IMG/VR virus record: IMGVR_UViG_3300027917_000053 | Location: 1 to 56,248 of that record | Length of the DNA stretch: 56,248 nt | From: a virus | Taxonomy: Duplodnaviria; Caudoviricetes | Strand: one strand, 5' to 3' | Shown here: positions 12,471 to 48,822 of the stretch, one piece after another | Layout of the letters: every line of letters starts with the position of its first letter | Numbering within the stretch: the first letter of the stretch is position 1 | Position numbers and translations under genes: made by a program | Notes under the pieces: model-generated | What the model was told of the DNA's origin: nothing | Databases searched by the model: none | The model's input: only the letters and a program-made list of their open reading frames with translations

Positions 12471-15032
12471 ATGACAGTACAGTCTACCCAGATTTACTCG
12501 TCTCGAGATAATACTAGAAACCAAATTATCTCGTATTTACAAGACTATTTAGAGTTAGAAAATGTTGATTTAACTAAGTCTTCTTTTTTGTCTTATTTGA
12601 TTAATATATTCTCTACGTTAACTAGTAATCTAATGTTTTTCTCCTCATCCGCTTATCAAGAGCAATTCATGACTTTAGCTCAATTACCTGAGAGTGTTTA
12701 CAATTTGTCAGCATTCTTAGGTTATAATGCTCAGATAGCAAATGCTACTCCTGCCGATGTAAGTGTTTTGTTTACCATTCCTTTGACTTTTACTTCAAGT
12801 TATGGTGATGGTCATATATCTTTTACTATCCCTGAGAACCATAAGTTTTATGCTGGAGATGTTATTTTTATTCCAACTTACTCAACCACAGTTACTATCT
12901 ATAATAATGCTACTGCCTCAATCGAAGCCACCAAGGATAATAAGAAATATAGTTTACCATTTACTATGGATACCACAAGTGCAAATTCTTTATATTTTGT
13001 ACTTCCCCTTGAGCAAAAAGAACCTAGAACTTCCTCAGAAGGGAATTCTTTTCAGTATACTATTCCTAATGATTTAGAGACTTATCAGTTTATTACTTTA
13101 GATGTCCCCTTTACTGAAGGAGAATTGACTGACATTGAAGTTTATGTCACCAATCCAGGTGAACCTAAAACTAGGTATACTAGGTATAGTAGTATTTATT
13201 TAATGGATTCAGAATCTGATGGATATGTCCTCCAAATTATCTCTTCTGGATATAGAATAATATTTGGAAATGGACTTATGGGAACTCAACCAAGAGCAGG
13301 AGCAATTGTTGATATTGAAGGTTATAAAACTTATGGAAGTAATGGAAATATTATTGCTGGATCACTTAGTTCTATGGACACGGTGTTAGTTGACGATGGT
13401 TCTACAACTGAAAAAGTTTTGGCTTATACTATAACTAATCCTTCCCCTGCTTCGGGTGGAGATGACTCAGAAGATATTGAAGAAGTAAGAAGTAGAGCAA
13501 TAGCAGGAATAACCACTTTAAACCGATTAGTTACTAGTGATGATTATTCAAAGTTTGACGAAATAGCTCCTACAACACCTATAACTGATCCAATAGCGAT
13601 TCTTAAGAGAAGTGATTTAAAAGTAAATGAAATCCAACTTTACACGAGGATAGATTTTAACGATGCTTTAGTTCCAACTAAAAATGCTATTCACACAGTT
13701 GCCGCTGGAGTGACTGAAATTCCAGCAGGAACTACAATTCCTATCACTACTTTGGACCCAGATACCAATACCTATGTAACTAATTATTATAGAAATCTAT
13801 TTGACATCACTATTGATAGGACTATTAATAATATCGCTTATTATGAATATGTAGTTGACGATGTTACTACTACTCCAGTTATTGACACAACTTATGACAT
13901 TTCCCCATTGTCATCTGATTTAATTTGCACAAGTGCTCGATTTGTAAGAACTGGTTATAGTATTGACGTTTTAGCCCCTTATTCTACCGAAGAAGCATTA
14001 ACTGGGATAACTGCAGTTTTAGTAAATAGAAATACTGGAGCAACTTATAATATGACTTTAGATGCTCCAAATGAGAGATTTACTTATACTTTTAGTAGTT
14101 ATCTACAACTTCAAGATTCACCAATTCAGTTTTATATCCAATTTTATAAAAATGGAAATCTATTTGTAAGATATACTACTACGGTTACTATTCGTCAAGA
14201 TTTAGATTATATGATGATGAGTAATATATCAACTGACTCTACTTCAACTATTGTTTACGATATTCCTGCTGTAAGTCGAGTTTGGTATAATAATTTAACT
14301 ACAACTCAACAATCTCAATTTGAAAGTATAGTTTTACAATCTTTAGTTGGTGATTTGGATTTAACTAATTATAGAATGTTAACAGATTTTACAAATATCA
14401 AATTTACCAATACCACTGGTTATATGTTTAATATGCTTTTAAATAGAACTTCGCAGGCTCAAGTTTTGGATATTGGATTGACTGCAATCCCAGTTTCTCC
14501 ATCAGTTGGTGATCGATATATAGTCACAGGAAATGAAGGTGGAGAATGGGAAAATCATCCTGGGGAGATTGCGGAATGTACTGACGCAACTGCAGTTACT
14601 TGGGCCTACACAACCCCAACTACAAATGACGTAGTATATATAGTTAGTAAGGATACAAGATATGTTTATAGTGAATTTGGATGGATTAAACCCACTTATA
14701 GTATCCCATTAATTATTAGCCTTGATGTATTCAAAACTAGAGACTACACAGGAACTGCAGCAGAGTTAATTAGTGCTATTAAAACTCAACTATTAGCAGA
14801 CTTTACTTCAAGATTTGGCTCAAATGTTGACATTTATCGAAGTGAAATAATAGAAAGTGTTATGGGTGTTACTGGAGTTTCTTATTGTAGACTTTTGAGA
14901 CCAAAATCAGATATTTTCTTTAATTTTGAAACTACTGATTTAACTCAAGCCCAACTACTTAGGTATAGTCCAGAATATGTTTATTTCACTTCTTCTTCAA
15001 TAAATGTCAACGTAGTTGGAGCGACAAGTTAA
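12471..15032 (+). CDS. Baseplate wedge subunit (T4 gp6 / baseplate J-like)
   Basis: AQLPESVYNL..FLGY, YRIIFGNG..G, ASGGDDSEDIEEVR, NRLVT..DY motifs. Confidence 0.85.
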   Translation: MTVQSTQIYSSRDNTRNQIISYLQDYLELENVDLTKSSFLSYLINIFSTLTSNLMFFSSSAYQEQFMTLAQLPESVYNLSAFLGYNAQIANATPADVSVLFTIPLTFTSSYGDGHISFTIPENHKFYAGDVIFIPTYSTTVTIYNNATASIEATKDNKKYSLPFTMDTTSANSLYFVLPLEQKEPRTSSEGNSFQYTIPNDLETYQFITLDVPFTEGELTDIEVYVTNPGEPKTRYTRYSSIYLMDSESDGYVLQIISSGYRIIFGNGLMGTQPRAGAIVDIEGYKTYGSNGNIIAGSLSSMDTVLVDDGSTTEKVLAYTITNPSPASGGDDSEDIEEVRSRAIAGITTLNRLVTSDDYSKFDEIAPTTPITDPIAILKRSDLKVNEIQLYTRIDFNDALVPTKNAIHTVAAGVTEIPAGTTIPITTLDPDTNTYVTNYYRNLFDITIDRTINNIAYYEYVVDDVTTTPVIDTTYDISPLSSDLICTSARFVRTGYSIDVLAPYSTEEALTGITAVLVNRNTGATYNMTLDAPNERFTYTFSSYLQLQDSPIQFYIQFYKNGNLFVRYTTTVTIRQDLDYMMMSNISTDSTSTIVYDIPAVSRVWYNNLTTTQQSQFESIVLQSLVGDLDLTNYRMLTDFTNIKFTNTTGYMFNMLLNRTSQAQVLDIGLTAIPVSPSVGDRYIVTGNEGGEWENHPGEIAECTDATAVTWAYTTPTTNDVVYIVSKDTRYVYSEFGWIKPTYSIPLIISLDVFKTRDYTGTAAELISAIKTQLLADFTSRFGSNVDIYRSEIIESVMGVTGVSYCRLLRPKSDIFFNFETTDLTQAQLLRYSPEYVYFTSSSINVNVVGATS

Positions 15033-24290: not shown

Positions 24291-24923
24291 CTAGGGTCTA
24301 CTGGCAATTATCTTTAAATACGGCCTATAGTCAAGATAAGTCGAATTTCTCCCTACAGATGTTATTTCTTTTATTTGCCAGTATCCCTCAAACTCCAGGT
24401 AATATTTAGCAAGGTTTTCCGTCCAGATACTTCCATGAGGATCGTACGGTTCATTACAGAATTCCGTAGTTATTTCTAGAAGTCTATTTAAGAAATCTTT
24501 ATTGATTTCTCCCACGGGTAAAACCTTATCTAAACCAATGAGGGTTTCAGCATAGTACCTATGATCAGGCACGAGGATTTCTAAAATCCCGTCCTTCTTA
24601 CATGAATTATGAAGCAAGTAAATAAAGGAAATTAGGTCTTTAAGAGGAACATGTTCCATGTAACGACTACATGTAATTTTGTCCACTTTAAACCTAAATG
24701 AGTCGAGAAAGTCAACCGCCTTACTTGAGCAAAAGAATACGAATCCCTCAGTAAAAGGTTTCACATTACTTACTGCTTTCATAAGATGGTTTTCTATCTC
24801 TGCGATTGAGCTACAGGATTTAACCGAGTAGGAACAATCAACATTAACCAGGAAATGGGAATCAGGAAGTTCAGTTTTATCAAAAGGAACTTTTCCCGAC
24901 CCAATATTCAATTCTAGATGCAT
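24291..24923 (-). CDS. Class I SAM-dependent methyltransferase-like protein
   Basis: LNIGSG motif I, VNVD, CSRYMEHVP, KKDGILEILVPD. Confidence 0.75.
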   Translation of the reverse strand: MHLELNIGSGKVPFDKTELPDSHFLVNVDCSYSVKSCSSIAEIENHLMKAVSNVKPFTEGFVFFCSSKAVDFLDSFRFKVDKITCSRYMEHVPLKDLISFIYLLHNSCKKDGILEILVPDHRYYAETLIGLDKVLPVGEINKDFLNRLLEITTEFCNEPYDPHGSIWTENLAKYYLEFEGYWQIKEITSVGRNSTYLDYRPYLKIIASRP

Positions 24924-25169
24924 GTTTCCTCCCTTATTCTAAAAGTTAATTAAAAGAAAACTCTAAGTAAAACAACTAGAACTACTCCTCTGTTAGGATT
25001 AATATTATCATGAGTGATATCCTTGTTATTGGGTTTTTCCTTTATTTACTATAATCTATAAGTTATAGTACTATACGTTTTAACACCCCATATCTTTATT
25101 AGTATGGAGTAAAATTCTATTCGGCTAGTAAGCAACTGATAGAATTTTTTATATTTGGTTACTTAGCTT

Positions 25170-25443
25170 AACTCAAACGGTTTTCTTCGGGCATATTATA
25201 CATTCCATTACGGTGGGTTTCTGAAAGTCAATGATACGTTTGTTTCCAGTGGGTTTCTATGGATGAATGATACATTCTATTTGTATGGTTTTTTCATAGT
25301 ACGACGTGATACATTAAGATAAAGTGGTTTTCTTCCTTAGAATGATACATTTTGAACTCGACGGTTTTCTAAAGCTCATTGATGCATTATTTTTTAGTGG
25401 TTTTCTAGGATGGTAAGATACGCTGTGTTCGAGTGGGTTTCTA
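25170..25443 (-). repeat. 36-nt dual-repeat (TIGR-like) array, block A, about 8 units
   Basis: Plus-strand ggktttct at 25179, 25215, 25251, 25287, 25326, 25363, 25399, 25435, alternating with gatacatt/gatacg half a period away. Confidence 0.85.
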
Positions 25444-26310
25444 TACCCTTTCCAGAATATTTTTTTCTAACTCATCGTCTACTACACTGACATTAAGATC
25501 AATTTCCTTAGAATTCAGAGGATACATGTTTTCAGGAATCAGTTTAGATATTTTATCTTTTTCTACTAGCAGCATCCGATTTATAACATTTATTGTCTTC
25601 TGAGGGGGGTATATGAGTGATTTGCTTCCGGGTTTGGGGTCACATAATAAAAATACCCTTTCGTTTTGTGAGAACTCCATTGGTAATAACAACTCTACTC
25701 CACGTATTTTGCAACATAAAGTTGCTAAAAGTTTAACTGAAATGTTGGGAATCACCTCAACATAGGGAGAGTTAATACTTTGTAATATTATTGTAGAATT
25801 GTCCTCCTTTTCAGGACCATATTTTGGAACCTTTCCAGTTGTTTCTATGCTATGTTTTAAAAATGAATAGTGTTCGTCCAGTGATGTGTTAATATCTTTA
25901 GCATATTTTTCAAACTCTTCATCTATCTTTACCTCATAAAATAATCCATTCTCTGTCCTTCTTAAATTTGAGGTTCCCTCTTTTAAGTTAAAAGAAACCT
26001 CATTTTGTTTATGACCATAAAAGGGATTGTTAACTATCAACTTTTTTAGTATCTCTGGTGTCTTAGAGACTAAAATTTTGTCTATGATTAGCGACATTTT
26101 CATCGGAAATTGTGTTTCATCTCGAAATATCGAATTTTGACATAATTTAAATATCCAAACCTGTTCATTCTCAGAATCTTGATTGGAGCAATAAATAATC
26201 CTGGCACTAAATTTAATTCCGTTTATGACTAAATCTAAGATCGAGTAGACATACGGAATCCCCTCTCTTATTTTACAACAACTACTATGGACTAGTCCTA
26301 ATTTAATCAT
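25441..26310 (-). CDS. Hypothetical protein, array-associated paralog family A (apparently two domains)
   Basis: SD aaggag; L.L.I.G..F / L.CKI.G.E..LP...P..V.N..L...LIP pattern shared with 26421, 26744 and 35602. Confidence 0.7.
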   Translation of the reverse strand: MIKLGLVHSSCCKIREGIPYVYSILDLVINGIKFSARIIYCSNQDSENEQVWIFKLCQNSIFRDETQFPMKMSLIIDKILVSKTPEILKKLIVNNPFYGHKQNEVSFNLKEGTSNLRRTENGLFYEVKIDEEFEKYAKDINTSLDEHYSFLKHSIETTGKVPKYGPEKEDNSTIILQSINSPYVEVIPNISVKLLATLCCKIRGVELLLPMEFSQNERVFLLCDPKPGSKSLIYPPQKTINVINRMLLVEKDKISKLIPENMYPLNSKEIDLNVSVVDDELEKNILERV

Positions 26311-26337
26311 ATCTTACTCTCCTTAAAAGTATATCCC

Positions 26338-26426
26338 AAGAAAAACCAATTTACTTTTTTGGGTTAACTCTTCTATTTTTGGAAACATTTTACTTGCAAC
26401 GGGTTTCTTAGAAATTATGATTAACT
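26338..26426 (-). repeat. Dual-repeat mini-array, block B (about 2 units) between two genes
   Basis: gggttaact 26361, ggaaacatt 26381, gggtttct 26401, gattaact 26419. Confidence 0.65.
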
Positions 26427-26741
26427 ATCAGAAATAGTTACGTTAACATCCTTTCTTTCTGATAATTGGAATACTTTAGGTAAATCTTTTACTATTCCTG
26501 GACTTATCTCTCTAAGTGTGTCATTTATTGAAGCCATTATTGGTTTCCACTTAGTATTAGAATAATTAATACCTTCCCTCATACACTCCACGGGGTTAGT
26601 TTCAAAATATCCAAATATGTTTATTAAAGGAATACTAAAATGACTTCCGTCGACTATGATTTTTAACCTACCTTTAACTATCGCTTTCCCTCCATAATCA
26701 ATACTTACAAATATGTTCTCAAAATACTCGATTTTAACCAT
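26421..26741 (-). CDS. Hypothetical protein, family A
   Basis: GRLKIIVDGSHFSIPL...INDTL; stop codon lies within an array repeat. Confidence 0.65.
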   Translation of the reverse strand: MVKIEYFENIFVSIDYGGKAIVKGRLKIIVDGSHFSIPLINIFGYFETNPVECMREGINYSNTKWKPIMASINDTLREISPGIVKDLPKVFQLSERKDVNVTISDS

Positions 26742-26743
26742 AT

Positions 26744-27136
26744 TTAGAATTCCTTTTCTTTATCTTCGCCTGTGTAAACAGTTATAGCATTCGAAACATT
26801 CATTTTTTCTATATCAATAGAGTTAACATGAAAGAACCTCGGAATACTCTGTAAACAAATCCAATTACATAATTTAAGCCATTTATTAATGCTATCAATC
26901 ACCTCCTGAGGCATTTTATTTATAAATCCAAAATTAGGATCATCGTCGGGAATAAGGGGATTAATTACTAAAACGCTTCCTGCTGAAACTAGAGGGAAAA
27001 TTCTTTCATCCCCGTCCACTGTGGTTCTCAGGAAAGCATAAAGATGACAATTATAAAATGGATCAGTTGGAGCTCTTCCATTAACCTGTGTTAGCATAAG
27101 TCGAATATGTGAAAGTTCTTTTACTTTGACCTCCAT
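26744..27136 (-). CDS. Hypothetical protein, family A
   Basis: LYAFLRTTVDGDERIFPLVS.G...PQEV..SIN.WL; SD gggagg. Confidence 0.7.
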   Translation of the reverse strand: MEVKVKELSHIRLMLTQVNGRAPTDPFYNCHLYAFLRTTVDGDERIFPLVSAGSVLVINPLIPDDDPNFGFINKMPQEVIDSINKWLKLCNWICLQSIPRFFHVNSIDIEKMNVSNAITVYTGEDKEKEF

Positions 27137-27150
27137 TTTAACCTCCCATT

Positions 27151-27558
27151 TTAATAAGACATGAAAATTAACGGGTGCTTATTTCCATCAATTCCTACTT
27201 TCTGAAGTTCGGATAAAACATACATCTTAAATTCGTGAAAAGTTTGATCATCTTTCATTTCATCAGTGCTTACACCAATCCTAATTCTATTTGGAAATAG
27301 ATGAAATTTAAGCTTTCTTTCTCTAAATCTATGATGCTTCCATTCGATTAGATGATAAATATTTCTGGAACTTTTTAAGAACTTATCTCTGTTGACTATA
27401 TTAGTTCGTAAACTAAAATACTCAGACGATATTTTTTTGGTGAACATAAGTGTCTTGAGTGCTTTTATAACATCTGGATATCTCCAAGGACTAACTATGT
27501 ATATCCCAAAAATAACTGATGAAGTACCATAATATACATCTTTTTCATATCCTGTCAT
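27151..27558 (-). CDS. Hypothetical protein, family B
   Basis: Start reassigned to ATG 27558 (SD aaggagg); C-terminal IRIGVS.DEMKDDQTF.EFK.YV..EL. Confidence 0.7.
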   Translation of the reverse strand: MTGYEKDVYYGTSSVIFGIYIVSPWRYPDVIKALKTLMFTKKISSEYFSLRTNIVNRDKFLKSSRNIYHLIEWKHHRFRERKLKFHLFPNRIRIGVSTDEMKDDQTFHEFKMYVLSELQKVGIDGNKHPLIFMSY

Positions 27559-27577
27559 TTTAACTACCTCCTTAAAA

Positions 27578-27916
27578 CTATGTAAAAAATACCATTCTAA
27601 ACCCTTCGGTATCAATTCCAAAATCTTCTAGTTGTGAACGAACATAACTATCAAATTCCTTAAGTGTTTGGTCTCCTTTCATTTCTTTCACATTGACTCC
27701 AATTTTCATATTTTTAACATATAACATGATAGTTAATTTTCCACGGGTCATTTTTATTTTAGGTTCGGAAATGAGTTTTCTCATTTTATAGTATAAATTT
27801 TCTTTTATTTCAGGAAACTCAGATAGGAGTAATTCTTTTATTTTTGGTATTAAGTATTCGAATGTATAGATGTCAGTAAAACTAATACCACAATAAGTAA
27901 CTTCAGGTATTCCCAT
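27578..27916 (-). CDS. Hypothetical protein, family B
   Basis: YCGI.F.DIY...KIGVNVKEMKGDQTLKEF; start ATG 27916. Confidence 0.7.
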   Translation of the reverse strand: MGIPEVTYCGISFTDIYTFEYLIPKIKELLLSEFPEIKENLYYKMRKLISEPKIKMTRGKLTIMLYVKNMKIGVNVKEMKGDQTLKEFDSYVRSQLEDFGIDTEGFRMVFFT

Positions 27917-27933
27917 TTTTCTACCTTTCAATT

Positions 27934-28287
27934 TTAATAACCATTTACGTATATTGCCATATCATCTCTTGAGAATTTGGGTTCTGTTATCTTTCCTAAT
28001 TCTGAGATAACGTAATCTTTGAACTCATTCAGTGGGGTATTTGGATTTTTCATTCCAATCCCGATATAGACTTTTTTTACAAATACTTCAAAGTTTAAGT
28101 TTTTATGAGTTAAACTTATATAAGATAATTTTTTACGTGACTGAAAACGTATCCCACTTTTATATTCCGTCCTTGGAAGGAATGAGTCTAATCTAAGAAG
28201 ATATAGTATATAAATAAAGTCACGTATTTCTTTATATTCGTTTATATTATCTATAACTACTCCCACTTTAGCATTATAACACCACAT
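27934..28287 (-). CDS. Hypothetical protein, family B
   Basis: VGVV.D...EIRDFIY.LY...YIG...PL.EFK.YVI.EL. Confidence 0.7.
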   Translation of the reverse strand: MWCYNAKVGVVIDNINEYKEIRDFIYILYLLRLDSFLPRTEYKSGIRFQSRKKLSYISLTHKNLNFEVFVKKVYIGIGMKNPNTPLNEFKDYVISELGKITEPKFSRDDMAIYVNGY

Positions 28288-28310
28288 CTTTTAAAGACCC
28301 CCCCTTTTTT

Positions 28311-28652
28311 CTATGTAAAGAAAACCAAATGTCTTTTTACTTTAATTTTGATCTTAAATAATTCTTCAGTAACAATTCTTTCAAAGTCAAGAAGAGATTG
28401 ATTATTTTTCATTTTATCTACATTGACTCCAATTTTTATATTCCTACTGAATATTATATAAGTTAACATTCCTTTAGTTATAACTATTTTATTGAGAGGA
28501 ATAAGACCTCTTATTTCTTGATACTCCAATCCAAATCCTACTAATCGTGAGAACTTAGCTTCAAGTAAATCTTTTATTATAGGCAATAATTTCTTATAGC
28601 TATAAATATCATAAAAGTATACTCCACAGTAAACTTCTTTGGTTTTCTTCAC
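28311..28652 (-). CDS. Hypothetical protein, family B
   Basis: Close paralog of 27578-27916 (YCGV.F.DIY; KIGVNV.KMK; VFFT end). Confidence 0.7.
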   Translation of the reverse strand: MKKTKEVYCGVYFYDIYSYKKLLPIIKDLLEAKFSRLVGFGLEYQEIRGLIPLNKIVITKGMLTYIIFSRNIKIGVNVDKMKNNQSLLDFERIVTEELFKIKIKVKRHLVFFT

Positions 28653-28665
28653 TTTTCCCCCTTTT

Positions 28666-29019
28666 CTAAAATAGTCGACTGGTATATAAAATCATATCCT
28701 TCTTTTTAAATCCAGTAAAACCAAGATCTTTTAATTCTTTAATGACAAAGGATTTAAAGTCTTTTAGAGGAACATTGTTTCTTTCTACTTCAGTCCCTAC
28801 GTAAAGTCTTTTTACATAAATCTCAAAGACTAAATTTTTATAAGGAGTTCGAATGTAATTAAATTTACTGCATTTTTCCACATATAAATTATTCTTATTG
28901 GCTATTCTATGTCGACTAATAGCTTTTTTATTAAGATATAAACAATATACAAATTCCCTTAGTTCTTTATGCTTAGATGCGTCTACTACTATTCCTACAA
29001 ATAGTTTATCATTCCACAT
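28666..29019 (-). CDS. Hypothetical protein, family B
   Basis: Start reassigned to ATG 29019 (MWNDK, SD ggagg); paralog of 27934-28287. Confidence 0.7.
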   Translation of the reverse strand: MWNDKLFVGIVVDASKHKELREFVYCLYLNKKAISRHRIANKNNLYVEKCSKFNYIRTPYKNLVFEIYVKRLYVGTEVERNNVPLKDFKSFVIKELKDLGFTGFKKKDMILYTSRLF

Positions 29020-29227
29020 CTTTTTCCTCCCCTTTATATCCTTCACAGTTAACCGGTTTCTGAGGAATAAAACCCTCAGAAGTCCTTTTATCAATATACT
29101 CTTTTGCTTTCTTATTAAACTTCATACAATGATAACCTTCACCTCCGAAAGTTAGATATCTACATCTTTCTTTTTCAGAGTAAAGTTTACATATATTTTC
29201 TAGTTGCTCTTTTGGTAAAAGTGACAT
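29009..29227 (-). CDS. Small Cys-containing hypothetical protein
   Basis: SD aggag; C...CRYL......C.K...NCEG. Confidence 0.65.
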   Translation of the reverse strand: MSLLPKEQLENICKLYSEKERCRYLTFGGEGYHCMKFNKKAKEYIDKRTSEGFIPQKPVNCEGYKGEEKDVE

Positions 29228-29262
29228 AATTGGACTCCTGAGGGCTTAAACTAACAATTGGT

Positions 29263-30530
29263 GGGGTTCTCTAAGGTGTTGGTAAACTTCTTGATCCTGG
29301 GTTTCTAAATGAATAAGATAATCTGTCTCGAAATGGGTTTCTCCGTATTCACGAAAAACTATATATTGATGGGTTTCTAATGAATATTGGTAAACTATAT
29401 CGGTACGAGTTATTAGTAATTCTGATAAACTTAAAGAAGATGGGTTTCTTAATTCTAATGATAAACTCTTTCCTGGCGGATTTTTACTTTTGTTTGGAAA
29501 ATGTTTTGGATTTGGGTTTCTATGGAATCGTGATAAATTATATGGGCGAAGGGTTTCTGTTATACCATGATAAACTTATACATTTAGGATTTCTGCGATG
29601 TAGAGGTAAACTAGCTCGGGGAGGATTTCTTCCTACCGCGGGTAAACTCATAATTAATGGGGTTCTAAATTAGAGTGGTAAACTTTTCTCATCTGAGTTA
29701 AGTTTGATTACTTGAAAAACTAGATTTTCATGGGTTACTAGCAGTACCTGATTACTATGTTCCAATGGGTTACTTAGAAATCAAGATAAACTTTCATTAA
29801 TGGGGTTTCTATTTATATATGCTAAACTAATTATTTATGGGTTTCTCTCACGAGGGGTTTCTAATATCTCTTTAGAAAAACTCGCAGATTGTGGGGTTTT
29901 TGTCAATTATGATAATTTGTCCTTAAGAGGGTTTCTTGGATTTTTCGGAAAACTCAATACCATTGGGTTTATTTCGAATTATGAAAATCTATTACTAATC
30001 GGGTTAAATTCTTTGGATAGGATAACTAGTCCAATGAGGGTTTCTTTCCAATTATGGTAAACTATGCAGATTGTGGGTTTCTAATCTTTCCTGGTAAACT
30101 ATGCAGATTGTGGGTTTCTTTTCAAATATGGTAAACTATTTTGTCATGGGTTTCTTACTCTTATCGGAAAACTAATCTCACATGGGTTTCTAGGATTTCC
30201 AGGTAAACTATTTTACTTAGGGTTCAGTTTTTAGTCTAGGAAAACTATATTTCTAAGACTTCTCCTTTAGCCAGATCACTGAGTAGTAAACTATTTTGTA
30301 ATGGGTTTCTTCTCCTTTATGATAAAAACTTATCATATTTGGATTACTATGAAATAGTGAAAAACTGTTTACGAATGGGTTACTTGATATTTTAGATAAT
30401 CTTTATAATTTTGGATTACTATTATTTATTGAAAAACTATTTAGGAGTGGGTTACTTGATATTCCAGATAATCTAAATTAACTAGGGTTTTATACGATGG
30501 TAATGAAAAATTTGCGATTTTAGGGTTTCT
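29263..30530 (-). repeat. 36-nt dual-repeat (TIGR-like) array, block C, about 34 units
   Basis: Alternating gggtt(t/a)ct and g(a/g)(t/a)aaact about every 18 nt, with unique intervening 9-10-mers. Confidence 0.9.
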
Positions 30531-30541
30531 TAATATATAGG

Positions 30542-30688
30542 CTATTCGTCGACTATAATATAAAGGTCGTATAAATATCTCCAACTCAAACTATCATATA
30601 TTTGGTTGAAGTTTATGCTATTCTTAGACTTTGCTAAATAAGCACAATAATAATGTGATACTTTACTAGTCAACATATATTTTCTCAT
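30542..30688 (-). CDS. Tyr-rich micro-ORF, 48 aa, inside the array
   Basis: MRKYMLTSKVSHYYCAYL...IVDE; fills a non-periodic gap; no clear SD. Confidence 0.35.
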   Translation of the reverse strand: MRKYMLTSKVSHYYCAYLAKSKNSINFNQIYDSLSWRYLYDLYIIVDE

Positions 30689-30710
30689 AGTTTAACTAGA
30701 TTCTCTTGGG

Positions 30711-30881
30711 TTAAAATATTAAATGGAGGTAGTCTAAATATCTCTTTGGTGTTTTATGATGTGCGTAAAGTTTTCTTACATAGATAGAGTATTTCTCAGA
30801 AGCGTCAACTTCATGCGATTTTAAGAAATATAATGAATGTTTATGATATGATAAATAATGAAGAAAAACTATATCGTACAT
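30711..30881 (-). CDS. Tyr/His-rich micro-ORF, 56 aa, inside the array
   Basis: MYDIVFLHYLSYHKHSLY...LHLIF; stop TAA lies within a TTTAACCCA repeat variant. Confidence 0.35.
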   Translation of the reverse strand: MYDIVFLHYLSYHKHSLYFLKSHEVDASEKYSIYVRKLYAHHKTPKRYLDYLHLIF

Positions 30882-30895
30882 TTCTTTTTCTCATT

Positions 30896-32722
30896 GGGTT
30901 TCTAGAAGTATTTAAAATAATCTTTATGTCAATGGGTTTCTCACACCTCCAGTAATTCTAGTTATAATACATCATTTATTTAGTTAACTAATATTAGGGG
31001 GGTTTCTAGGAAGTTTAGATATACATTACATTATTGTATTACTAAGAAATTATGGTAAACTCGTGGGTTTTCTGGGTTAAATAACTTGACTAGATACATT
31101 AAAAATTTTAGGGTTTCTTTTCTGCCAAGATAAACTAGTCCGAGTAAGGGTTACTATATATCTTGTGAAAAATAACTCACCTCCTTTAGGATTTCTAGAT
31201 GTACATGATAAACTAATCTCCTCTGGGTTACTTAAAAGATGTGATAATCTCTATTAATTAGGGTTTCTACGAAGTAATGAAAAACTAGGTTGGTCGTGGG
31301 TTAAATATTTCCCAATGATAAACTGCATCAGTTTGGATTACTCTTGCAGCACGGGTAAACTCTTGCTTATTGGATTTCTCGGCTTCAAAGATAAACTTAA
31401 ACGGAGTGGGTTAGTATAAATTAATTAGAAAAAATATCATCTTCTGGGTTTCTCCTGCCATAATGTTAAACTTTACTCTTTCGGAGTTACTATTCACAAT
31501 GGGTTAACTTACACTCACTGGGTTACTTATACATAGTGGTTAACTTACACTCACTGGGTTACTTTATAGTTGTGGTAAACTTACGCTACATGGGTTACTC
31601 TGTACATATGGTAAACTCGATAATTAAGGGTTTCTAATCTAAAAAGATAAACTTATGTTTTAAAAGTTAAATCTAAATCAAAGGTTAAATTTTAAGTATG
31701 TGGGTTTCTTCTCCTTTATAATAAACTTTAACATATTGGGTTAAATTAGAGCCCATGGTAAACTTCAGATACAAGGCTAATGGGTTAACTTTCCCCCTTC
31801 TGGGTTACTAGCTTTATGTGGTTAACTTCTCCATCATGGATTACTGACTTTTAAAGATAAACTTCGGTATTTCGAGTTGAATATAAATATGAGGTAAACT
31901 CTCTCGTTCTGGGTTATTGACCTTCCAGAGTAAACTTTAGAATGCTGAGTTAAATAATCAATATCAGTGATAAACTATCTGTCCTTGGATTTCTTTGTAG
32001 AAATGATAAAATCTTTGATTCTGGATTTCTATGCCTTATAGATAAAAACTATATTTCTATGGGTTTCTGATTTTTTTAGATAAACTTTTTCTCCTCGGGT
32101 TACTTAAAAATGTAAGATAAATTTATTCTCTCTGGGTTATTTAAGTGATTTAGATAAACTCTTCCTCCTCGGGTTACTATAGCGTGATAGTAATCTTATC
32201 CAATTCGGGTTTCTTTGGAGGGTTGGAAATCTCTTGGCCTGTGAGTTAATTTTCCTTAGTGAAAAACTTAAAACCGGTGGGTTACTCGCCGTTTTTGTTA
32301 AATAAACTATAAAATAGTGTACTAATTTGTTCTAAAGGTAAACTTTAGGTGTCTGGGTTATTTGGTGTATATGATATATAAATTTATCAAATTTACCAGA
32401 TTTGGGTTTCTTAATTTCAATGATAAACTCTATTAATTAGGGTTTCTACGAAGTTCTGGTAATCTCCTCCACCCGGGATTACTTACGACTTCAGGAAAAA
32501 ACTCAATTATTCAAGGGTTAATTTCGCTATTCGATAAACTCAGCTGTTCAGGATTACTTGCGGTTTAAGATAAACTCATCGTATCTGGTTTGAGTCCTTT
32601 TTCTAGGAAAACTCTCTTTGAATGGGGTTAAATATATAATCTTGATAACTTTATATAATTGGGTTTCTTATCGCAATGGGTAATCTTCTATGAGAGAGGG
32701 TTAATAAGTAGTATTGAAAATT
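30896..32722 (-). repeat. 36-nt dual-repeat (TIGR-like) array, block D, about 48 units
   Basis: For example, repeats at 31502, 31520, 31538, 31556, 31574, 31592 and 31610 are in exact 18-nt steps. Confidence 0.92.
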
Positions 32723-32858
32723 AACAACGCATTTTACTTGTGTATACATTAAGTCTATCAAAAGTAGAATGTATAAAACTTGAATATGAGTGAAACCAAG
32801 AATGGTGTTTCCATCCAGTCATAATTAAATATATTATGTACTCTTTTTCAAGACTCAT
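32721..32858 (-). CDS. Aromatic-rich micro-ORF, 45 aa, inside the array
   Basis: SD aagga; MSLEKEYIIYLIMTGWKHHSWFH...; stop overlaps the first repeat of block D. Confidence 0.4.
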   Translation of the reverse strand: MSLEKEYIIYLIMTGWKHHSWFHSYSSFIHSTFDRLNVYTSKMRC

Positions 32859-32867
32859 AATAATTCC

Positions 32868-32981
32868 TTAAAGTTTAGATATATCAAGATGAATTTCTCC
32901 AAAATACATTGCTCGACATGAATAATACCAATTGTTCTTAAATCGGGATAAATAACCAATATAATAAATAATCATGTCCAT
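32868..32981 (-). CDS. Tyr-rich micro-ORF, 37 aa, inside the array
   Basis: MDMIIYYIGYLSRFKNNWYYSC...; tandem with the neighbouring micro-ORF. Confidence 0.35.
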   Translation of the reverse strand: MDMIIYYIGYLSRFKNNWYYSCRAMYFGEIHLDISKL

Positions 32982-33032
32982 TATATTATCTGATTCGGTT
33001 TGGGTTAGTTGATTTCCATAGAAAACTTAAAG

Positions 33033-33105
33033 TGACACCGTAGGGATTCGAACCCTAATGACCGACTAGAAAGGCCGGTATCCTAAACCATTAGATGACG
33101 GTGCC
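33033..33105 (-). tRNA. trnE: tRNA-Glu (TTC)
   Basis: GGCACCG/CGGTGTC acceptor stem, D-loop AATGGTTT, anticodon arm CCGGC-CTTTCTA-GTCGG, T-arm TAGGG-TTCGAAT-CCCTA; CCA not encoded. Confidence 0.9.
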
Positions 33106-33134
33106 ATAAAATAGTATGTTCTAAAAACTAGTAA

Positions 33135-33360
33135 GGTAAACTTTACTCTTTAAGGGTTACTTCCCCTAATCGGTAAACTTTCTTTTTCGGGGTTACTTCA
33201 TTTTACGGGTAAACTTGCCTGTTTTGAGTTAATTAGGGATTGATGACAATCTTGTTTAACTAGAGTTAATTATAACTTATGAAAATTTTACGAAGTGTGG
33301 GTTACTTTCACTTTACGAAAATCTTATTACTCCTGAGTTAATGCTCATGAAGGGAAATCT
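33135..33360 (-). repeat. Dual-repeat array, block E, about 6 units
   Basis: ggtaaact/gaaaatct alternating with gggttact/gagttaat at about 18 nt. Confidence 0.85.
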
Positions 33361-33940
33361 AATTCTTTGAAGAAGAACTTGGATTTTCCTCTTCCTTGGT
33401 TTCATGAATGATTAAAGGTTCGCTTCCAGGATATTGATCTTGTATAAAAGATTTTACTCCACCAATCATTTTTTTCATATCGTCCCTAAATCCTTCACTT
33501 TTTTTAGTCCAAGGAAGACCTTCGGCTTTACATGATAGATATTCTCCAATATCATACATGCAGTCGACTTTTCGTCCTTCTTCGATTTTTTCCAAAAGAG
33601 TTTTAAATTGTTCTTCTGTAAAAACTCCTTCCTTATGTAGGTTGGTAACAAATTTTTGAACTATGTCGAAAGATGAATCACCGTGACTCCATTCATAATT
33701 ATAAGAAAATCCTGGTCCTAAAGCAGACATATTTCCCATTTTTTCATTACATCCAAGATACCAAATAACTAAATCTCCAGGAATAAGATTCCCTGCCTCA
33801 TCAAAGGCATGTCCACAATCGGATATAAGAAAATTAAATAATTGGTCTCCTGTGGTTTCTTGAGCAATCATATCTTGAGGAAATGTATCGGTATAGATTT
33901 TAGCATAAATATCTACAGATATCACTGTTTTATTGTTCAT
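33359..33940 (-). CDS. Hypothetical protein embedded in the array
   Basis: 193 aa, SD ggagg; stop TAG overlaps repeat AGATTTCCC. Confidence 0.75.
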   Translation of the reverse strand: MNNKTVISVDIYAKIYTDTFPQDMIAQETTGDQLFNFLISDCGHAFDEAGNLIPGDLVIWYLGCNEKMGNMSALGPGFSYNYEWSHGDSSFDIVQKFVTNLHKEGVFTEEQFKTLLEKIEEGRKVDCMYDIGEYLSCKAEGLPWTKKSEGFRDDMKKMIGGVKSFIQDQYPGSEPLIIHETKEEENPSSSSKN

Positions 33941-34169
33941 CAGAATCCTCCGAAAGTATACTTTTTGAGACAGTAAAGCGAGCTAATCCTTTAAGAGCAG
34001 GATTTTTTAGCATTTCTTCTAATTCCCTTTGTTTTTGCTCTTGCTCAGCAAGATATTTCTTTTTCTCCTCTTTGGTCATTTGTTGAAATAATCTTTCTTC
34101 TTCTTCCAGTTTTTCGGTAATGTCTTTCAGTAAATCGTCAAAACGCATAGCTTTAACTCTCTCGACCAT
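33930..34169 (-). CDS. Small coiled-coil hypothetical protein embedded in the array
   Basis: SD gaggt; E/K-rich; overlaps the next gene. Confidence 0.7.
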   Translation of the reverse strand: MVERVKAMRFDDLLKDITEKLEEEERLFQQMTKEEKKKYLAEQEQKQRELEEMLKNPALKGLARFTVSKSILSEDSDEQ

Positions 34170-34188
34170 TTTTTATACCTCATATTTA

Positions 34189-34615
34189 TGGGTTAGTATA
34201 ATATTATCTATTTCTACAAGGGTTACTAAGCATCATTGAAAAACTCTTTTAAGAAGGATTTCTACCTTTTAGTGATAAACTTTTTTACGGTGGATTACTT
34301 ATCGAAATTGATACATTCACCTGGGAAAGGGTTACTTTATCCAATTGATAAACTAGATATGGGTGGGTTACTATTTATTCCTGATAAACTTCACTTTTCT
34401 GGGTTACTTATATTTGAAAGATAAACTAAACTATTATGGAGTTATAAAATAATTAGTTTTGGTTAACTTAGATCTTGTGAGTTAATTGGAGGCGATGGAT
34501 AAACTTTTCCATATAGGATTTCTTTACTCAAATGATACTCTAAATAGAAGTGGGTTACTTTGCGTATAGGGAAAATCTACAGTTGAATGGGTTACTACCC
34601 GTTTTGGGAAAAATA
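34189..34615 (-). repeat. Dual-repeat array, block F, about 11 units
   Basis: gggttact/ggattact alternating with gataaact at 18-nt spacing. Confidence 0.88.
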
Positions 34616-34969
34616 TTAACACTGTCCACCAGGGCCAGTTGCTTTATGTAATTCTTTTTCTGTCTTTTCCCACGCTTTTAAGTCAATCATATCAGTGACA
34701 TCATACATTTGATCACTATACCAAACATAGCAATGCTTACATTTAGTACATACATTCACGCAGAGTGAATCAGTAGTGATATGCTGGGTTTTGTCTGCTT
34801 TAAGATAGGGCATAACAGATTCAAGATACCCAGCGTGACGAAAATGGACATTCCCACATTCTGGACATCGAAAAAGGAATAACTCTTCTGCAGTTATCTT
34901 TTTCGGTTTAACTTTGTCTTTAAAACAATTAGGTATACTTACTTCTTTCCCTTCTTCCTTTTTGTCCAC
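34616..34969 (-). CDS. Zinc-ribbon protein embedded in the array
   Basis: CPECG...CTKC; GTG start with SD aaggag; stop directly abuts block F. Confidence 0.7.
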   Translation of the reverse strand: MDKKEEGKEVSIPNCFKDKVKPKKITAEELFLFRCPECGNVHFRHAGYLESVMPYLKADKTQHITTDSLCVNVCTKCKHCYVWYSDQMYDVTDMIDLKAWEKTEKELHKATGPGGQC

Positions 34970-35006
34970 CTTTAAACTCCTTTTTTAAAGTTATCTGTTA
35001 TCTTTA

Positions 35007-35480
35007 GGGTTTCTGTCAATGATTGGAAATCTTCTCGTTCATGGTTTACTACGGAATCATGAAACTTTATTTTGTTATGGGTTACTACTTTCAATTGAAA
35101 AATTTGTTATAAATGAGTTTATTCACTCACTCAGAAATCTTCTCTTGTAAGGGCTAATACACATATCTATGGAAATAATGGATTATTTATTTTCAAAGAA
35201 AATCTATATTTCGTAGGGTTACTGTTCGTATAAGGAAATCTCTATAACTATGGATTAATGCACAAACAAGAAAAAATCTTTTTTTCCAGAGGGTTACTTT
35301 CCGTATAGGGAAAATCTGTATAACGATGGGTTAATGCACAAACAAGAAAAAATCTATTTTGCAGTGGGTTTCTTACTCATAGTGAAAAACTATTAACATA
35401 CGGGTTAAGTTGTTATAATAAGGAAATCTTACATCCTTTGAATTTCTATTTTTCTGGGTTACTCGACATAGAAGAAAATT
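35007..35480 (-). repeat. Dual-repeat array, block G (5'-most on the minus strand), about 13 units
   Basis: gggttact/gggttaat alternating with ggaaatct/gaaaatct variants. Confidence 0.85.
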
Positions 35481-35489
35481 ATAAAAATA

Positions 35490-35558
35490 GGAGGCTCTTT
35501 TGATATAAAATGATCCCGTTGTCTTAGGGAATACTACTTTCATACTAAAAGAGCCTCC
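35490..35558 (-). other. Stem-loop at the head of the array region (leader or terminator)
   Basis: ggaggctctttt (35490-35501) pairs perfectly with aaaagagcctcc (35547-35558). Confidence 0.55.
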
Positions 35559-35601
35559 ACAGAAAGATAAAAAGTCATTAACTTTTTACCAAGGGGCCAA
35601 A

Positions 35602-36036
35602 TTAAGATCTGCTATGTTTATACTGTTTTCTGTCTGCTGGTTGCTGATTTTGTGGTTTTTCAGCATTATTTAACTCAACAGTAATATCAAACATAACAGG
35701 GACTGGAAGTTGAGAAACCCAAATAGTACTTGGAATTAACTCGGTATAGACGAAATCTTTTCCTTCCAAAAGTTCATTAATCCTTTTATAAACTATTTCA
35801 GGAAGGTCTTTTGATTCCTGATATTTTCGAACTTTCGTCATCTCCTCTTTATCAACCTTGAGATACTTCCCTCCATCTGAGCAAACAGGTAAGCGGTATT
35901 CTTTTTCATCCATTCGGATTCGAACTTCTCCATATAAAGTCCCTGTTACTAAAATATCACGATGACTATTATCGTTTTTATCAACATTCAAAAAAAGATC
36001 ACTCAAAGATAAAACTTCGATTGATTTAGTAGACAT
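35602..36036 (-). CDS. Hypothetical protein, family A
   Basis: LYGEVRIRMDEKEYRLPVCSDG...LPEIVYKRINELL...LIP; SD aaggagg. Confidence 0.7.
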   Translation of the reverse strand: MSTKSIEVLSLSDLFLNVDKNDNSHRDILVTGTLYGEVRIRMDEKEYRLPVCSDGGKYLKVDKEEMTKVRKYQESKDLPEIVYKRINELLEGKDFVYTELIPSTIWVSQLPVPVMFDITVELNNAEKPQNQQPADRKQYKHSRS

Positions 36037-40461: not shown

Positions 40462-41463
40462 TTAGGTAAAATCGAATGGACAATTAGATGGATTTTTACT
40501 CAATAAATTCCTTGCTTTTAAAAACGGGGGAGCATTTTTCCAAACTTCAACCATACTTCTTTTACTTATATCAACTCCCCACTCATCGTGATCAGCAAAT
40601 GAACAAGGCATAAATTTCAAGTCTGGACTTATATAAGCAGACTTCCTTCCTGCTTCACAAGTGTCTAAAAAAACTTGCTCTTTCTTAGTAAAATTTAACT
40701 TTAAAGACATAATTTTATTTACTAAACATGAGTCCATTCCCAACTTAAAAGGACTCTTAGATTCTCTCAAACCAGCAAGGAAAAGTTTTATCTTATCATC
40801 ACTTGGAACTAGGTGAATAAGATTTTTTCCTCTTCCTTGGGGTTTGAAAAGAAGAAAAATAACTGCGTTAAGTTTATCTCGGTTAACTTTTTTATTCCAG
40901 ACGTCTTCACCTTTAGCAATTTGTATACACTTGTCAACTGATTCTGAAGTTACTACTATATGTATATTAGTTTTCATTTCATATGACTGAAGTAACTTAA
41001 TTGCTTCAAAAGTGAAATCTTTACTATAATCAGAAACCGCTACCGCTCCACAAAATTCCTTCGCAATCTCAACTTTTTCCTTAGTTAATTTTCTCCCGCT
41101 TGTAGTGAAATTAGGAACTACTTCGTTTTCCCTACAATAAGAAACTATTTCTTTATAATGTTCATGGAGTTCTGGATCTCCCCTCCCTCCAAGAGCACAT
41201 TGGTTTACGAGTTTTTTAGTCTCATTTATAATTCTTTTAAAACCATCCAAAGTCATATTTGGTTGGTCTTTATCTCCTTGATAACATATAGAGCATTTAT
41301 TTTCACAATGACCCATTATTCCAATATCTAGCATACATGGAAAATAGAGACTAAATGGGTCTTCATGACCATTTATTCCTGAAGTTATTTCCATCCCAGT
41401 TTCAGTATCGAATAGAATGATATAGTTTTTATTTGCTATAGTTTTTATCATTTTATTTTTCAT
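40462..41463 (-). CDS. Radical SAM enzyme with a C-terminal SPASM/twitch-type domain
   Basis: CENKCSICY (CxxxCxxC), GGRGDP, CEAG...YISPD...PCSF, terminal CP. Confidence 0.9.
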   Translation of the reverse strand: MKNKMIKTIANKNYIILFDTETGMEITSGINGHEDPFSLYFPCMLDIGIMGHCENKCSICYQGDKDQPNMTLDGFKRIINETKKLVNQCALGGRGDPELHEHYKEIVSYCRENEVVPNFTTSGRKLTKEKVEIAKEFCGAVAVSDYSKDFTFEAIKLLQSYEMKTNIHIVVTSESVDKCIQIAKGEDVWNKKVNRDKLNAVIFLLFKPQGRGKNLIHLVPSDDKIKLFLAGLRESKSPFKLGMDSCLVNKIMSLKLNFTKKEQVFLDTCEAGRKSAYISPDLKFMPCSFADHDEWGVDISKRSMVEVWKNAPPFLKARNLLSKNPSNCPFDFT

Positions 41464-47961: not shown

Positions 47962-48822
47962 CTATACCAAGAAATAATCAGGACTAAGTCCGCCAGGAAC
48001 TCCTTTTGAAAGAATACAAACCGCTTCATGTGTATGGATAGACTCAAAGTGTTCACATTTAAGAAGCCAATCACAAATCCTATCATTTCTATCCAATTTG
48101 TCAGCTATTTCTCTAGCTGCATCTTCTACAAACATTGGATATTTAGCCGCCCGGATTGCTAAGAATTGCTCATCCTTTCGTTTAATAATAGGATATGGAA
48201 TATTTACAACAGCTTTCTCTACATCCCATATTACATTCTCTAACCATACATTTCTTGGAGGAATAGTTTGAACAGTTACGGTTGCTAAACTTCTTTGAGC
48301 ATGAGGAAATCCTTTTACATTGTCATTCTTTAAAGCATATTCACTTAATTCTGCTGAACATGGACAATAAGAAGCATAAGGAACTTTTACTATTTGAAAA
48401 AAGTGATATCCGAAAGAACCGAGTCTTCCCTCAAAAGTACAATTATAAAACTCAGGAAATTTTTGCCAGGTTTCTGGGGATTCTTTTACTATTGAGATAT
48501 CAAAATTAAATTTAGCATAAGCACAATTACATATAATTCCAATATCTTTTATTACTGCTTCTAACATTTCTTTTATTGAATTATTATTTAAATTAGTATG
48601 TCTCCATCGATCCAGACATCTCACAAATCTTGACATACTTACACCTTTTACATCTTTTTCTAAATCAGTAAAAATATCTACTTTTGCTTTAACTTCATAT
48701 GCATCTTTGCCATTTACTCCTGACTGAATACTTAATGGAACGGAAACATTCTGAACACCTACTCTATGTAAATGTCTTGGACAATTGGGCCTCATATCTT
48801 GTTGGACATCTGGGAGATTCAA
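47962..48822 (-). CDS. folE2: GTP cyclohydrolase IB (FolE2)
   Basis: LPDVQ, KGVSMSRF, YCPCS, HAQRS, PMFVEDAAR, FESIH.HEA. Confidence 0.92.
   Translation of the reverse strand: MNLPDVQQDMRPNCPRHLHRVGVQNVSVPLSIQSGVNGKDAYEVKAKVDIFTDLEKDVKGVSMSRFVRCLDRWRHTNLNNNSIKEMLEAVIKDIGIICNCAYAKFNFDISIVKESPETWQKFPEFYNCTFEGRLGSFGYHFFQIVKVPYASYCPCSAELSEYALKNDNVKGFPHAQRSLATVTVQTIPPRNVWLENVIWDVEKAVVNIPYPIIKRKDEQFLAIRAAKYPMFVEDAAREIADKLDRNDRICDWLLKCEHFESIHTHEAVCILSKGVPGGLSPDYFLV

Follow-up and report, generated by a model that had tools for sequence, protein, structure and literature searches.

A long dual-repeat TIGR array interrupted by genes and a tRNA in a fragment of a large tailed phage

TIGR-Tas systems, described by Faure et al., Science 2025 (PMC12045711), carry dual-repeat arrays in which repeats of 8–12 nucleotides (nt) alternate with spacers of ~9 nt and from which 36-nt guides are processed; the box D and box C motifs covary between edge repeat and loop repeat in these arrays (PMC12045711). 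Dual-repeat Tas proteins cut the precursor RNA (pre-tigRNA) within the edge repeat (PMC13421893; bioRxiv 10.64898/2026.09.09.750476 sections 10, 11). Here, a 56,248-nt stretch of viral DNA (Caudoviricetes; IMG/VR record IMGVR_UViG_3300027917_000053, positions 1 to 56,248), the whole of which is referred to below as the window, was found to carry on its minus strand a long array of this anatomy that is broken by genes and a tRNA, with repeats standing flush against the ends of the embedded elements. The locus is an unusual variant of a known system and is neither a new kind of system nor an integron-like device. We consider it somewhat probable that the array and its embedded genes and tRNA are transcribed together and cut at the edge repeats by a Tas protein encoded outside the window.

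Published TIGR arrays can be found upstream of tas, downstream of it, or on both sides, and they can even overlap a tas coding sequence at its ends (PMC12045711; bioRxiv 10.64898/2026.09.09.750476), and section 5 of the preprint gives a mean of ~16 units for dual-repeat arrays (65,635 tigRNAs in 4,126 arrays). According to PMC12045711, it is not known how TIGR arrays originate, how they grow, or how they are expressed. The published catalogues look around tas, so that arrays far from tas or broken by genes would be missed; orphan, jumbo-phage, gene-interrupted, or tRNA-bearing arrays are not mentioned in the main text of the TIGRFinder preprint (bioRxiv 10.64898/2026.09.09.750476), and no publications linking TIGR arrays with jumbo phages were found. 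The window array resembles the published dual-repeat arrays in its alternating repeats of 8–9 nt, its spacers of 9–10 nt, its 36-nt period, the AG start and CC end shared by its repeats, and the presence of its box types beside Tas genes in relatives. It differs from them in its length of ~111–130 units, which is ~eight times the published mean, in its division into nine segments by 14 non-tas open reading frames (ORFs) and a tRNA, in the lack of a tas gene within 56 kb, and in the lack of a hairpin or gap between gene stops and array.

The array and its Tas-linked relatives

The unit was defined by an iterated two-box weight matrix with an 8-nt box A and a 9-nt box B. Over positions 25170–35480 of the minus strand, a 36-nt dual-repeat unit recurs that consists of box A (AGTTTAYC), a spacer of 10 nt (spacer A), box B (AGWAACCCA), and a spacer of 9 nt (spacer B). 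The seed motif [AT]AACCC was counted 89 times on the minus strand between 25000 and 35600, most commonly at a spacing of 36 nt. At a pair score of at least 12, 109 units were detected at 25150–35560 on this strand, compared with 14 elsewhere on the minus strand and 6 on the entire plus strand; at a pair score of at least 10, the region holds 111 units in nine segments covering 4671 nt, or ~130 units when counted by span. A length of 10 nt was measured for spacer A in 78 of 111 units and of 9 nt for spacer B in 71 of 87 adjacent pairs; among 88 intervals from one box B to the next, 36 nt (23 intervals), 37 nt (12), and 38 nt (4) were observed. Sequence logos show that box A and box B have in common an AG start and a CC or YC end, often with an A after it. 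The two alternating short repeats, the spacers of ~9–10 nt, the unit of ~36 nt, and the start (box D) and end (box C) motifs common to both repeats are those of a dual-repeat TIGR array, and on grounds of sequence the window array is assigned to TIGR-Tas, in the TasA-like branch.

Searching with a pattern derived from the boxes brought up eight metagenome loci and one viral contig (G001). At seven of these nine loci, a protein of 346–410 amino acids (aa) is encoded beside a contiguous array of 16–28 units, with the other two containing an array only; six of the eight metagenome loci encode homologues with 33–41% identity beside arrays of 19–28 units. Because L007, L008, and L009 look like one sequence, the set was taken as one viral and four distinct metagenome Tas-linked relatives. 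G001 is the nearest phage relative, its tail sheath protein being 65.6% identical to that of the window and the next gene 54%, and its locus runs in the order 7-unit array, 355-aa gene, hairpin, 16-unit array, and terminator. The 355-aa protein matches the solved chain 9mty_A at E 3.4e-12 and TasH at E 2.4e-5, and a profile built from five relatives' proteins matches 9mty at E 1.5e-21 and the solved TasH at E 2.1e-14. An invariant tyrosine of this profile aligns with the catalytic Y289 of SpTasH, one of two residues for which cleavage of pre-tigRNA within the edge repeat is reported (PMC13421893); an invariant histidine near the tyrosine is not exactly aligned. The arrays of the relatives start and end with box A, which identifies box A as the edge repeat and box B as the loop repeat.

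No tas gene was found in the 56-kb window, where tblastn gave a best E of 1.0 and a five-sequence hidden Markov model run with filters off gave a best E of 0.28. Family scans were confined to the window and covered 59 ORFs with Pfam and 24 ORFs with PHROGs; no Nop family was seen in the Pfam scans. The G001 sheath gene is preceded, two genes upstream, by the TIGR-Tas locus, which is encoded on the opposite strand; in the window, the left end cuts the sheath gene. Synteny with this one relative suggests that tas probably lies just beyond that end.

Sixteen further viral Tas loci, with flanks of up to 10 kb, were also compared. The box model saw arrays in eight of them, and a second array beyond genes in only one, G002 (IMGVR_UViG_3300010167_000031). 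This second array, of ~56 units, lies 6 kb from the tas-adjacent array, starts 4 nt past the TGA that closes a 193-aa ORF of the same orientation, and has a terminator hairpin at its end; judged by its position, it can be read as an independent replicate of the flush gene–array junction. Like the window array, it is long, of the same box type, and flush after a co-oriented non-tas gene. Unlike the window array, it is uninterrupted, it has a clear terminator hairpin at its end and tas on the same contig, and the 6-kb gap between the two G002 arrays holds genes on both strands with terminators of their own. The tas-adjacent array of G002 (L030) has a GC-rich hairpin inside it (11530–11575) and closes with a bidirectional terminator (12915–12945) that also serves a convergent gene. 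In G003, a relative of 224.6 kb, a single 54-unit array lies next to tas, with 24 pattern matches there and 1 elsewhere. No tRNAs were found near arrays in 16 related loci.

Spacers in the window are mostly unique, although near-duplicates exceed expectation, with 16 spacer-A pairs at no more than 2 mismatches (4.4 expected from shuffles) and 9 spacer-B pairs at no more than 1 mismatch (2.6 expected). Tandem-repeat finding returned dimer duplications of 72–76 nt. With segments numbered from S1 to S8 along the minus strand, the S1 unit at 35317 and the second S2 unit at 34578, which flank the gene at 34616–34969, have a common spacer with 1 mismatch in 11, and a spacer of the first S7 unit differs at 1 position from that of the unit at 31061, 4.6 kb off. 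The array shows both local and dispersed unit duplications. No clear excess of dual-spacer matches, as would be expected of self-targeting, was seen in the window: the count was 640 when at most 3 mismatches were allowed and 63 when at most 2 were, compared with 533–621 and 42–61 in ten permuted-pair controls, and several of the matches lie inside the array itself.

Other copies of the region were compared in contigs from four sequencing runs, representing four samples and four studies whose records are of marine sediment and seawater. All 30 bins of the region were covered in three runs and 29 in the fourth. Twenty-four base positions differ, together with one in-frame 3-nt gap, and these nearly identical copies make for a shallow test. 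The gap, at 28732–28735 in a region of paralogous genes, was seen in two runs. In three of the four other runs, three base differences at 30354–30357 fall close together in a single spacer A of 10 nt, which hints that spacers diversify by point changes. At 32030 (plus-strand coordinate), a contig in runs X2, X4, and X6 leaves the array match for 244–255 letters unlike the window; this loose sequence, which is absent from the window, may represent either structural variation in the array or a related but distinct sequence.

These data also bear on whether the array is still in use. An orphan, decaying TIGR array without working guides, left behind after tas was lost or relocated, would be in keeping with the absence of tas from the window, with boxes that are more degenerate than in the relatives (median pair score 22.1 and 13 of 111 units at 26 or above, compared with the top score in 16 of 23 units of G001), and with isolated pieces of one or two units (S4, S5b, and S7). 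A relic of this sort is nevertheless thought unlikely. The spacer geometry is tightly kept, ~4.7 kb of useless DNA would be unusual for a phage, the near-duplicates leave most spacers unique, the sequence is nearly identical in the four other runs, and the contig is a fragment, so that tas may be off it. The mapped units contain 6 base differences between runs, 4 in spacers and 2 in boxes, which are too few to weigh.

Junctions between genes and repeats

The ORF and stop coordinates given on the minus strand by the original prediction, which was made from the bare sequence, all proved correct on re-mapping. At each of the five embedded elements (four gene blocks and the tRNA), a box starts between −6 and +4 nt from the last base, whereas among 55 ORFs of 90 aa or more from other parts of the window, taken as controls, only 3 show a box-like motif at their ends within the wider range of −8 to +4. 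Flush junctions are therefore beyond chance. The first box past the element is box A in four of five cases, and the downstream offsets are +1, −2, and −6 (box A), −2 (box B), and +4 (tRNA, box A). On the upstream side, the strong box nearest to the start is B, B, A, B, or A, depending on the element, at 19–36 nt.

It had also been proposed that gene stops overlap the repeats, and this holds for three of the four gene blocks. The stop of ORF 25441–26310 (TAG, 25443–25441) provides the AG with which box B AGAAACCCA (25442–25434) starts; that of ORF 26421–26741 (TAA, 26423–26421) lies within box A AGTTAATC (26426–26419); and that of ORF 33359–33940 (TAG, 33361–33359) overlaps box A AGATTTCC (33360–33353). 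The fourth, ORF 34616–34969, ends in a TAA (34618–34616) that stands one base ahead of box A ATTTTTCC (34614–34607) and is adjacent only. The stops of two micro-ORFs behave as described, one (30713–30711) falling within TTTAACCCA and the other (32723–32721) overlapping AATTTTCA.

Whether stop codons are supplied by the repeats more often than chance allows was also raised, and here the answer is negative, as an overlap of 45–49% is expected. Of 369 stop triplets in the array, 179 (48.5%) touch a box, compared with 49.5% of all triplet positions, and a random frame entering the array meets its first stop after a median of 21 nt, with 44.8% of these first stops touching a box. Three overlaps in four give a binomial P of ~0.24, or ~0.04 if the adjacent stop is counted as a fourth. 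The commonest stop sites in the array are T/AG at the start of a box (61 of 369) and TAA in AGTAACCC (57 of 369), and stops fall in boxes because the boxes are the commonest stop sites of the array (T/AG and AGTAA). Of greater interest than this overlap, which is a by-product, is the way guides, genes, and a tRNA are packed flush in one mosaic.

The 193-aa protein of ORF 33359–33940 illustrates how a frame may end in the array. Eight homologues with 43–53% identity were found, and the window protein has a non-conserved C-terminal tail of 21 residues past the last conserved column, compared with 0–7 in the eight homologues. The frame seems to have run on to the first stop, T/AG at the first box. 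By inspection, no likeness to decayed array units was seen in this tail.

Among the readings put forward in the original prediction was that the repeats are DNA recombination or insertion sites for cargo genes, in the manner of integrons. As in integron cassettes (attC/attI, IntI), short ORFs in the window are separated by repeats abutting their stop codons; genes lie between runs of repeats, near-identical spacers occur either side of the gene at 34616–34969 and in S7 and unit 31061, and the 193-aa gene is found elsewhere without an array, its one homologue with a readable context lying in an ordinary tight operon of another phage. Capture of this kind is nevertheless not supported and is regarded as very improbable. 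The junctions have no fixed position in the repeat, the boxes are 8–9 nt long and non-palindromic, unlike attC, and the scanned window ORFs contain no integrase, transposase, or recombinase family, including the IntI type of tyrosine recombinase. Features of integrons that the window lacks are attC-like palindromes, a fixed point of crossover, and cassettes that vary from sample to sample. There is only one case of an inverted repeat at a gene end, of 12 bp (26423–26467), and no attC-like palindrome at each gene end. The codon composition of the embedded genes is native (G+C content at third codon positions, GC3, of 0.20–0.30, compared with 0.15–0.29 for other phage genes), and among the eight further Tas loci with arrays, a second array beyond genes occurs only in G002. 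In the presence/absence comparison at the junctions, contigs of the four runs bridge the junctions with base changes only and show neither presence/absence nor joint variants.

Read along the minus strand, the mosaic begins with S1 (35006–35480; 12 units detected, 13.2 by span), which starts with box A after a strong hairpin and contains dimer duplications of 76 nt; its boxes are of the AGATTTYC / AGTAACCC and ATTAAYCCA type. A single gene (34616–34969) separates it from S2 (34185–34614; 10 units detected, 11.9 by span), and a gene pair (33359–34169) separates S2 from S3 (33136–33360; 6 units and a trailing box A). The tRNA (33032–33105) is followed by S4 (32991–33027), which is a single unit, by a first non-array stretch (32723–32990), and by S5 (30895–32722; 42 units detected, 50.8 by span). 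Beyond a second non-array stretch (30513–30894), within which an isolated unit lies at 30707–30735, come S6 (29246–30512; 31 units detected, 35.2 by span), a block of nine genes (26421–29227), S7 (26340–26426; 2 units and a box-A-like piece between two genes, 2.4 units), a 289-aa gene (25441–26310), and S8 (25170–25462; 6 units detected, 8.1 by span). The one or two units earlier noticed between genes are thus located at S7, at the isolated unit, and at S4. The elements between segments amount to four gene blocks (14 ORFs), tRNA-Glu, and two short non-array stretches, and all 14 ORFs, the tRNA, and all array units are on the minus strand. Of the six segments placed directly after a gene block, the tRNA, or a 45-aa micro-ORF, five (S2, S3, S4, S5, and S7) open with box A and one, S8, with box B. 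S6 is nearest to the consensus, AGTTTACC / AGAAACCCA, and its terminal box A, AGTTTAAG, is followed by AGGAG and the ATG at 29227. The boxes of S8 differ from the rest, with AAYGTATC as edge box and AGAAAMCCA as loop box, and these variants may point to a second Tas specificity. The box-A consensus of the more distant relative G002/L022, AGTGTATC, resembles the S8 edge box.

Proposed transcription and processing of the mosaic

Strong hairpins are found only at the borders of the region and at no internal junction. An AU-rich hairpin followed by a U run (35566–35590, minus strand) forms by folding a terminator-like left border just after the stop of a 144-aa gene (35602–36036), and a strong leader hairpin (35490–35558, minus strand; inverted repeat I1) stands directly before the first unit. 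The 121-nt stretch that contains both hairpins (35481–35601) folds at −39 kcal/mol (z −4.94), with none of 200 shuffles as good. After S8, a perfect 10-bp hairpin without a clear U run (25111–25148, minus strand; inverted repeat I17; fold z −2.17) is a possible end of the transcription unit. In all four relatives with an array downstream of tas, a gap of 35–80 nt with a GC-rich hairpin separates the tas stop from the array.

With only 0–4 nt between a stop and the segment behind it, a promoter belonging to that segment could not be placed outside coding sequence, and read-through transcription of the gene–array junctions appears to be the simplest reading. According to the mechanism proposed here, the 10.3 kb would form one transcription unit, or a few, with transcription starting after the hairpins at 35490–35590 and ending near the hairpin at 25111–25148. 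Internal segments, having neither a promoter nor space for an untranslated region (UTR) of their own, would each restart with a box a few bases after the preceding stop. Tas, probably encoded just past the left end, would bind each unit and cut every edge repeat, to give 36-nt guides and, as by-products, mRNAs with 5′ leaders of ~15–30 nt and almost no 3′ UTR, and a tRNA precursor. The flanking mRNAs and the tRNA precursor would be freed because Tas cuts edge repeats and these would be present on the read-through transcript. Cleavage of RNA at the junctions, which was the other reading raised in the original prediction, fits both the published Tas cleavage and the anatomy of the array.

A simpler account is that segments and genes are separate units with promoters of their own, which abut because phage genomes delete useless DNA, and that Tas has no role in the maturation of the mRNAs or the tRNA. 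Such compaction is possible but seems rather unlikely. Many ordinary gene pairs in the window are 1–7 nt apart or overlap, stops overlap boxes at the level of chance, upstream junctions vary (19–36 nt, with mixed box types), and the region includes two stretches without array, 268 and 382 nt long, all of which it would readily accommodate. It is harder to reconcile with segments that start 0–4 nt past a stop and leave no promoter room outside coding sequence, and with the lack of terminator-like hairpins between genes and the next segments, which the relatives have; in addition, any read-through transcript would be cut by a Tas that cuts edge repeats.

Several observations weigh against co-transcription and Tas cleavage, which we still favour. 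The absence of tas from 56 kb means that the activity of the array rests on an unseen gene, and the boxes are more degenerate than those of the relatives. Scans for sigma-70 promoters and terminators were not above shuffles (65 compared with 66.7 expected, and 12 compared with 7.9 expected), and such scans may be blind, as the phage has RNA polymerase genes of its own. Internal promoters could be held by the non-array stretches (32723–32990 and 30513–30894) or by coding sequence, and with flush packing common genome-wide, adjacency alone needs no functional reason. A post-hoc test of junction phase is weak, the start of box A falling in a 12-nt window of the 36-nt period in four of five cases (P ~0.045). 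Cleavage in the middle of the box would also cut the stop TAA inside AGTTAATC (26423–26421) off its mRNA.

Polycistronic precursors that are punctuated by structured RNA elements are known from the mitochondrial tRNA punctuation model and from engineered tRNA–guide RNA arrays. The mechanism proposed for the window is similar in that one long transcript would be cut at structured RNA elements into mRNAs, a tRNA, and guides, and different in that the cutter would be a guide-binding Nop-domain protein acting on its own repeats. In its strongest form, put forward tentatively as a less than likely possibility, the region would be a hybrid precursor RNA from which Tas, acting as an operon punctuation enzyme, releases ~130 guides, four mRNAs, and a tRNA-Glu precursor.

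Embedded genes, phage context, and implications

The gene at 34616–34969 (minus strand) encodes a 117-aa protein with CxxC...CxxC motifs and has a GTG start and an AAGGAG ribosome-binding site; no family was found for it in Pfam or PHROGs. The next block (33359–34169, minus strand) pairs a 79-aa gene (33930–34169) with the 193-aa gene (33359–33940). The tRNA, tRNA-Glu (UUC) at 33032–33105 on the minus strand, was called by ARAGORN and matches Rfam RF00005 at 52.6 bits, nothing besides it being found by Rfam in the window. A box A lies 29 nt upstream of the tRNA, and the next box A begins 4 nt past its 3′ end. The non-array stretch at 32723–32990 (minus strand; 268 nt), with a 45-aa micro-ORF at 32721–32858, is possibly an internal promoter region, and that at 30513–30894 (minus strand; 382 nt) holds micro-ORFs of 56 aa (30711–30881) and 48 aa (30542–30688). 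It is doubtful that the micro-ORFs ending at 30711 and 32721 are coding.

The block at 26421–29227 (minus strand) contains nine tightly packed genes, five of which are tandem paralogues of 112–135 aa (27151–29022, minus strand) with pairwise E down to 7e-20. No relatives of this family were found beyond the window. An AlphaFold model of one paralogue has a pLDDT (predicted local distance difference test) of 76 and a pTM (predicted template modelling score) of 0.71; Foldseek returned no match to it at E of 0.001 or below, and the best VIA-align Z of 4.1 is not convincing. At the end of the block, a 12-bp inverted repeat (26423–26467, minus strand) with 92% complementarity and a loop of 21 nt has its end precisely at the stop and box A of a 106-aa gene. 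If RNA were cut in that box A, the mRNA of the 106-aa gene would end in a stem-loop.

The 289-aa gene at 25441–26310 (minus strand), an ORFan with array on either side, was considered as a hidden Tas and rejected. Its best PDB sequence match has an E of 0.26 and BLASTP against the G001 Tas gives E 5.2; it has no relatives in viral contigs and finds only itself in a set of 5.8 billion proteins. An exhaustive search returned itself and one internally repetitive 746-aa protein, which was taken as spurious. A single-sequence AlphaFold model was unusable (mean pLDDT 30.4), and the ESM Atlas gave no usable match.

The window is a fragment of a large marine tailed phage, encoding the C terminus of a tail sheath, baseplate proteins, and a large terminase, as well as RNA polymerase beta and beta-prime-like subunits. 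Searches turned up no close relatives of the phage, and its terminase has at most 29.6% identity to any GenBank phage. Approximately 250 nt downstream of the last array segment and on the same strand, a 210-aa ORF (24291–24923, minus strand) has a weak class-I methyltransferase match (Methyltransf_23, E 0.0038, 17.4 bits against a cut-off of 27 bits); no usable related locus was found among viral contigs for this or a 417-aa neighbour gene. A GTP cyclohydrolase I of the FolE2 type is encoded at 47962–48822 (minus strand; E 9.5e-63), and a radical-SAM-like protein at 40462–41463 (minus strand) has a weak match of 26.9 bits, under the Pfam cut-off of 29.5 bits. Both presumably belong to the types of gene that serve in the modification of DNA with 7-deazaguanine.

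Section 5 of bioRxiv 10.64898/2026.09.09.750476, which reports arrays that overlap tas coding sequences at their ends, suggests that the maturation of guides is linked to translation, and the present locus would extend that link to non-tas genes. Should the junctions be cleaved, the locus would offer a direct test of whether guide processing also matures mRNAs, and a natural template for expression cassettes of mixed guides, mRNAs, and tRNAs; should they not be, it would still be an informative extreme for array growth. If the region does act as a hybrid precursor RNA, expression of the embedded genes and tRNA would depend on Tas and guide maturation, which would give the TIGR system a second, gene-regulatory job and provide a natural counterpart of engineered tRNA–guide arrays.

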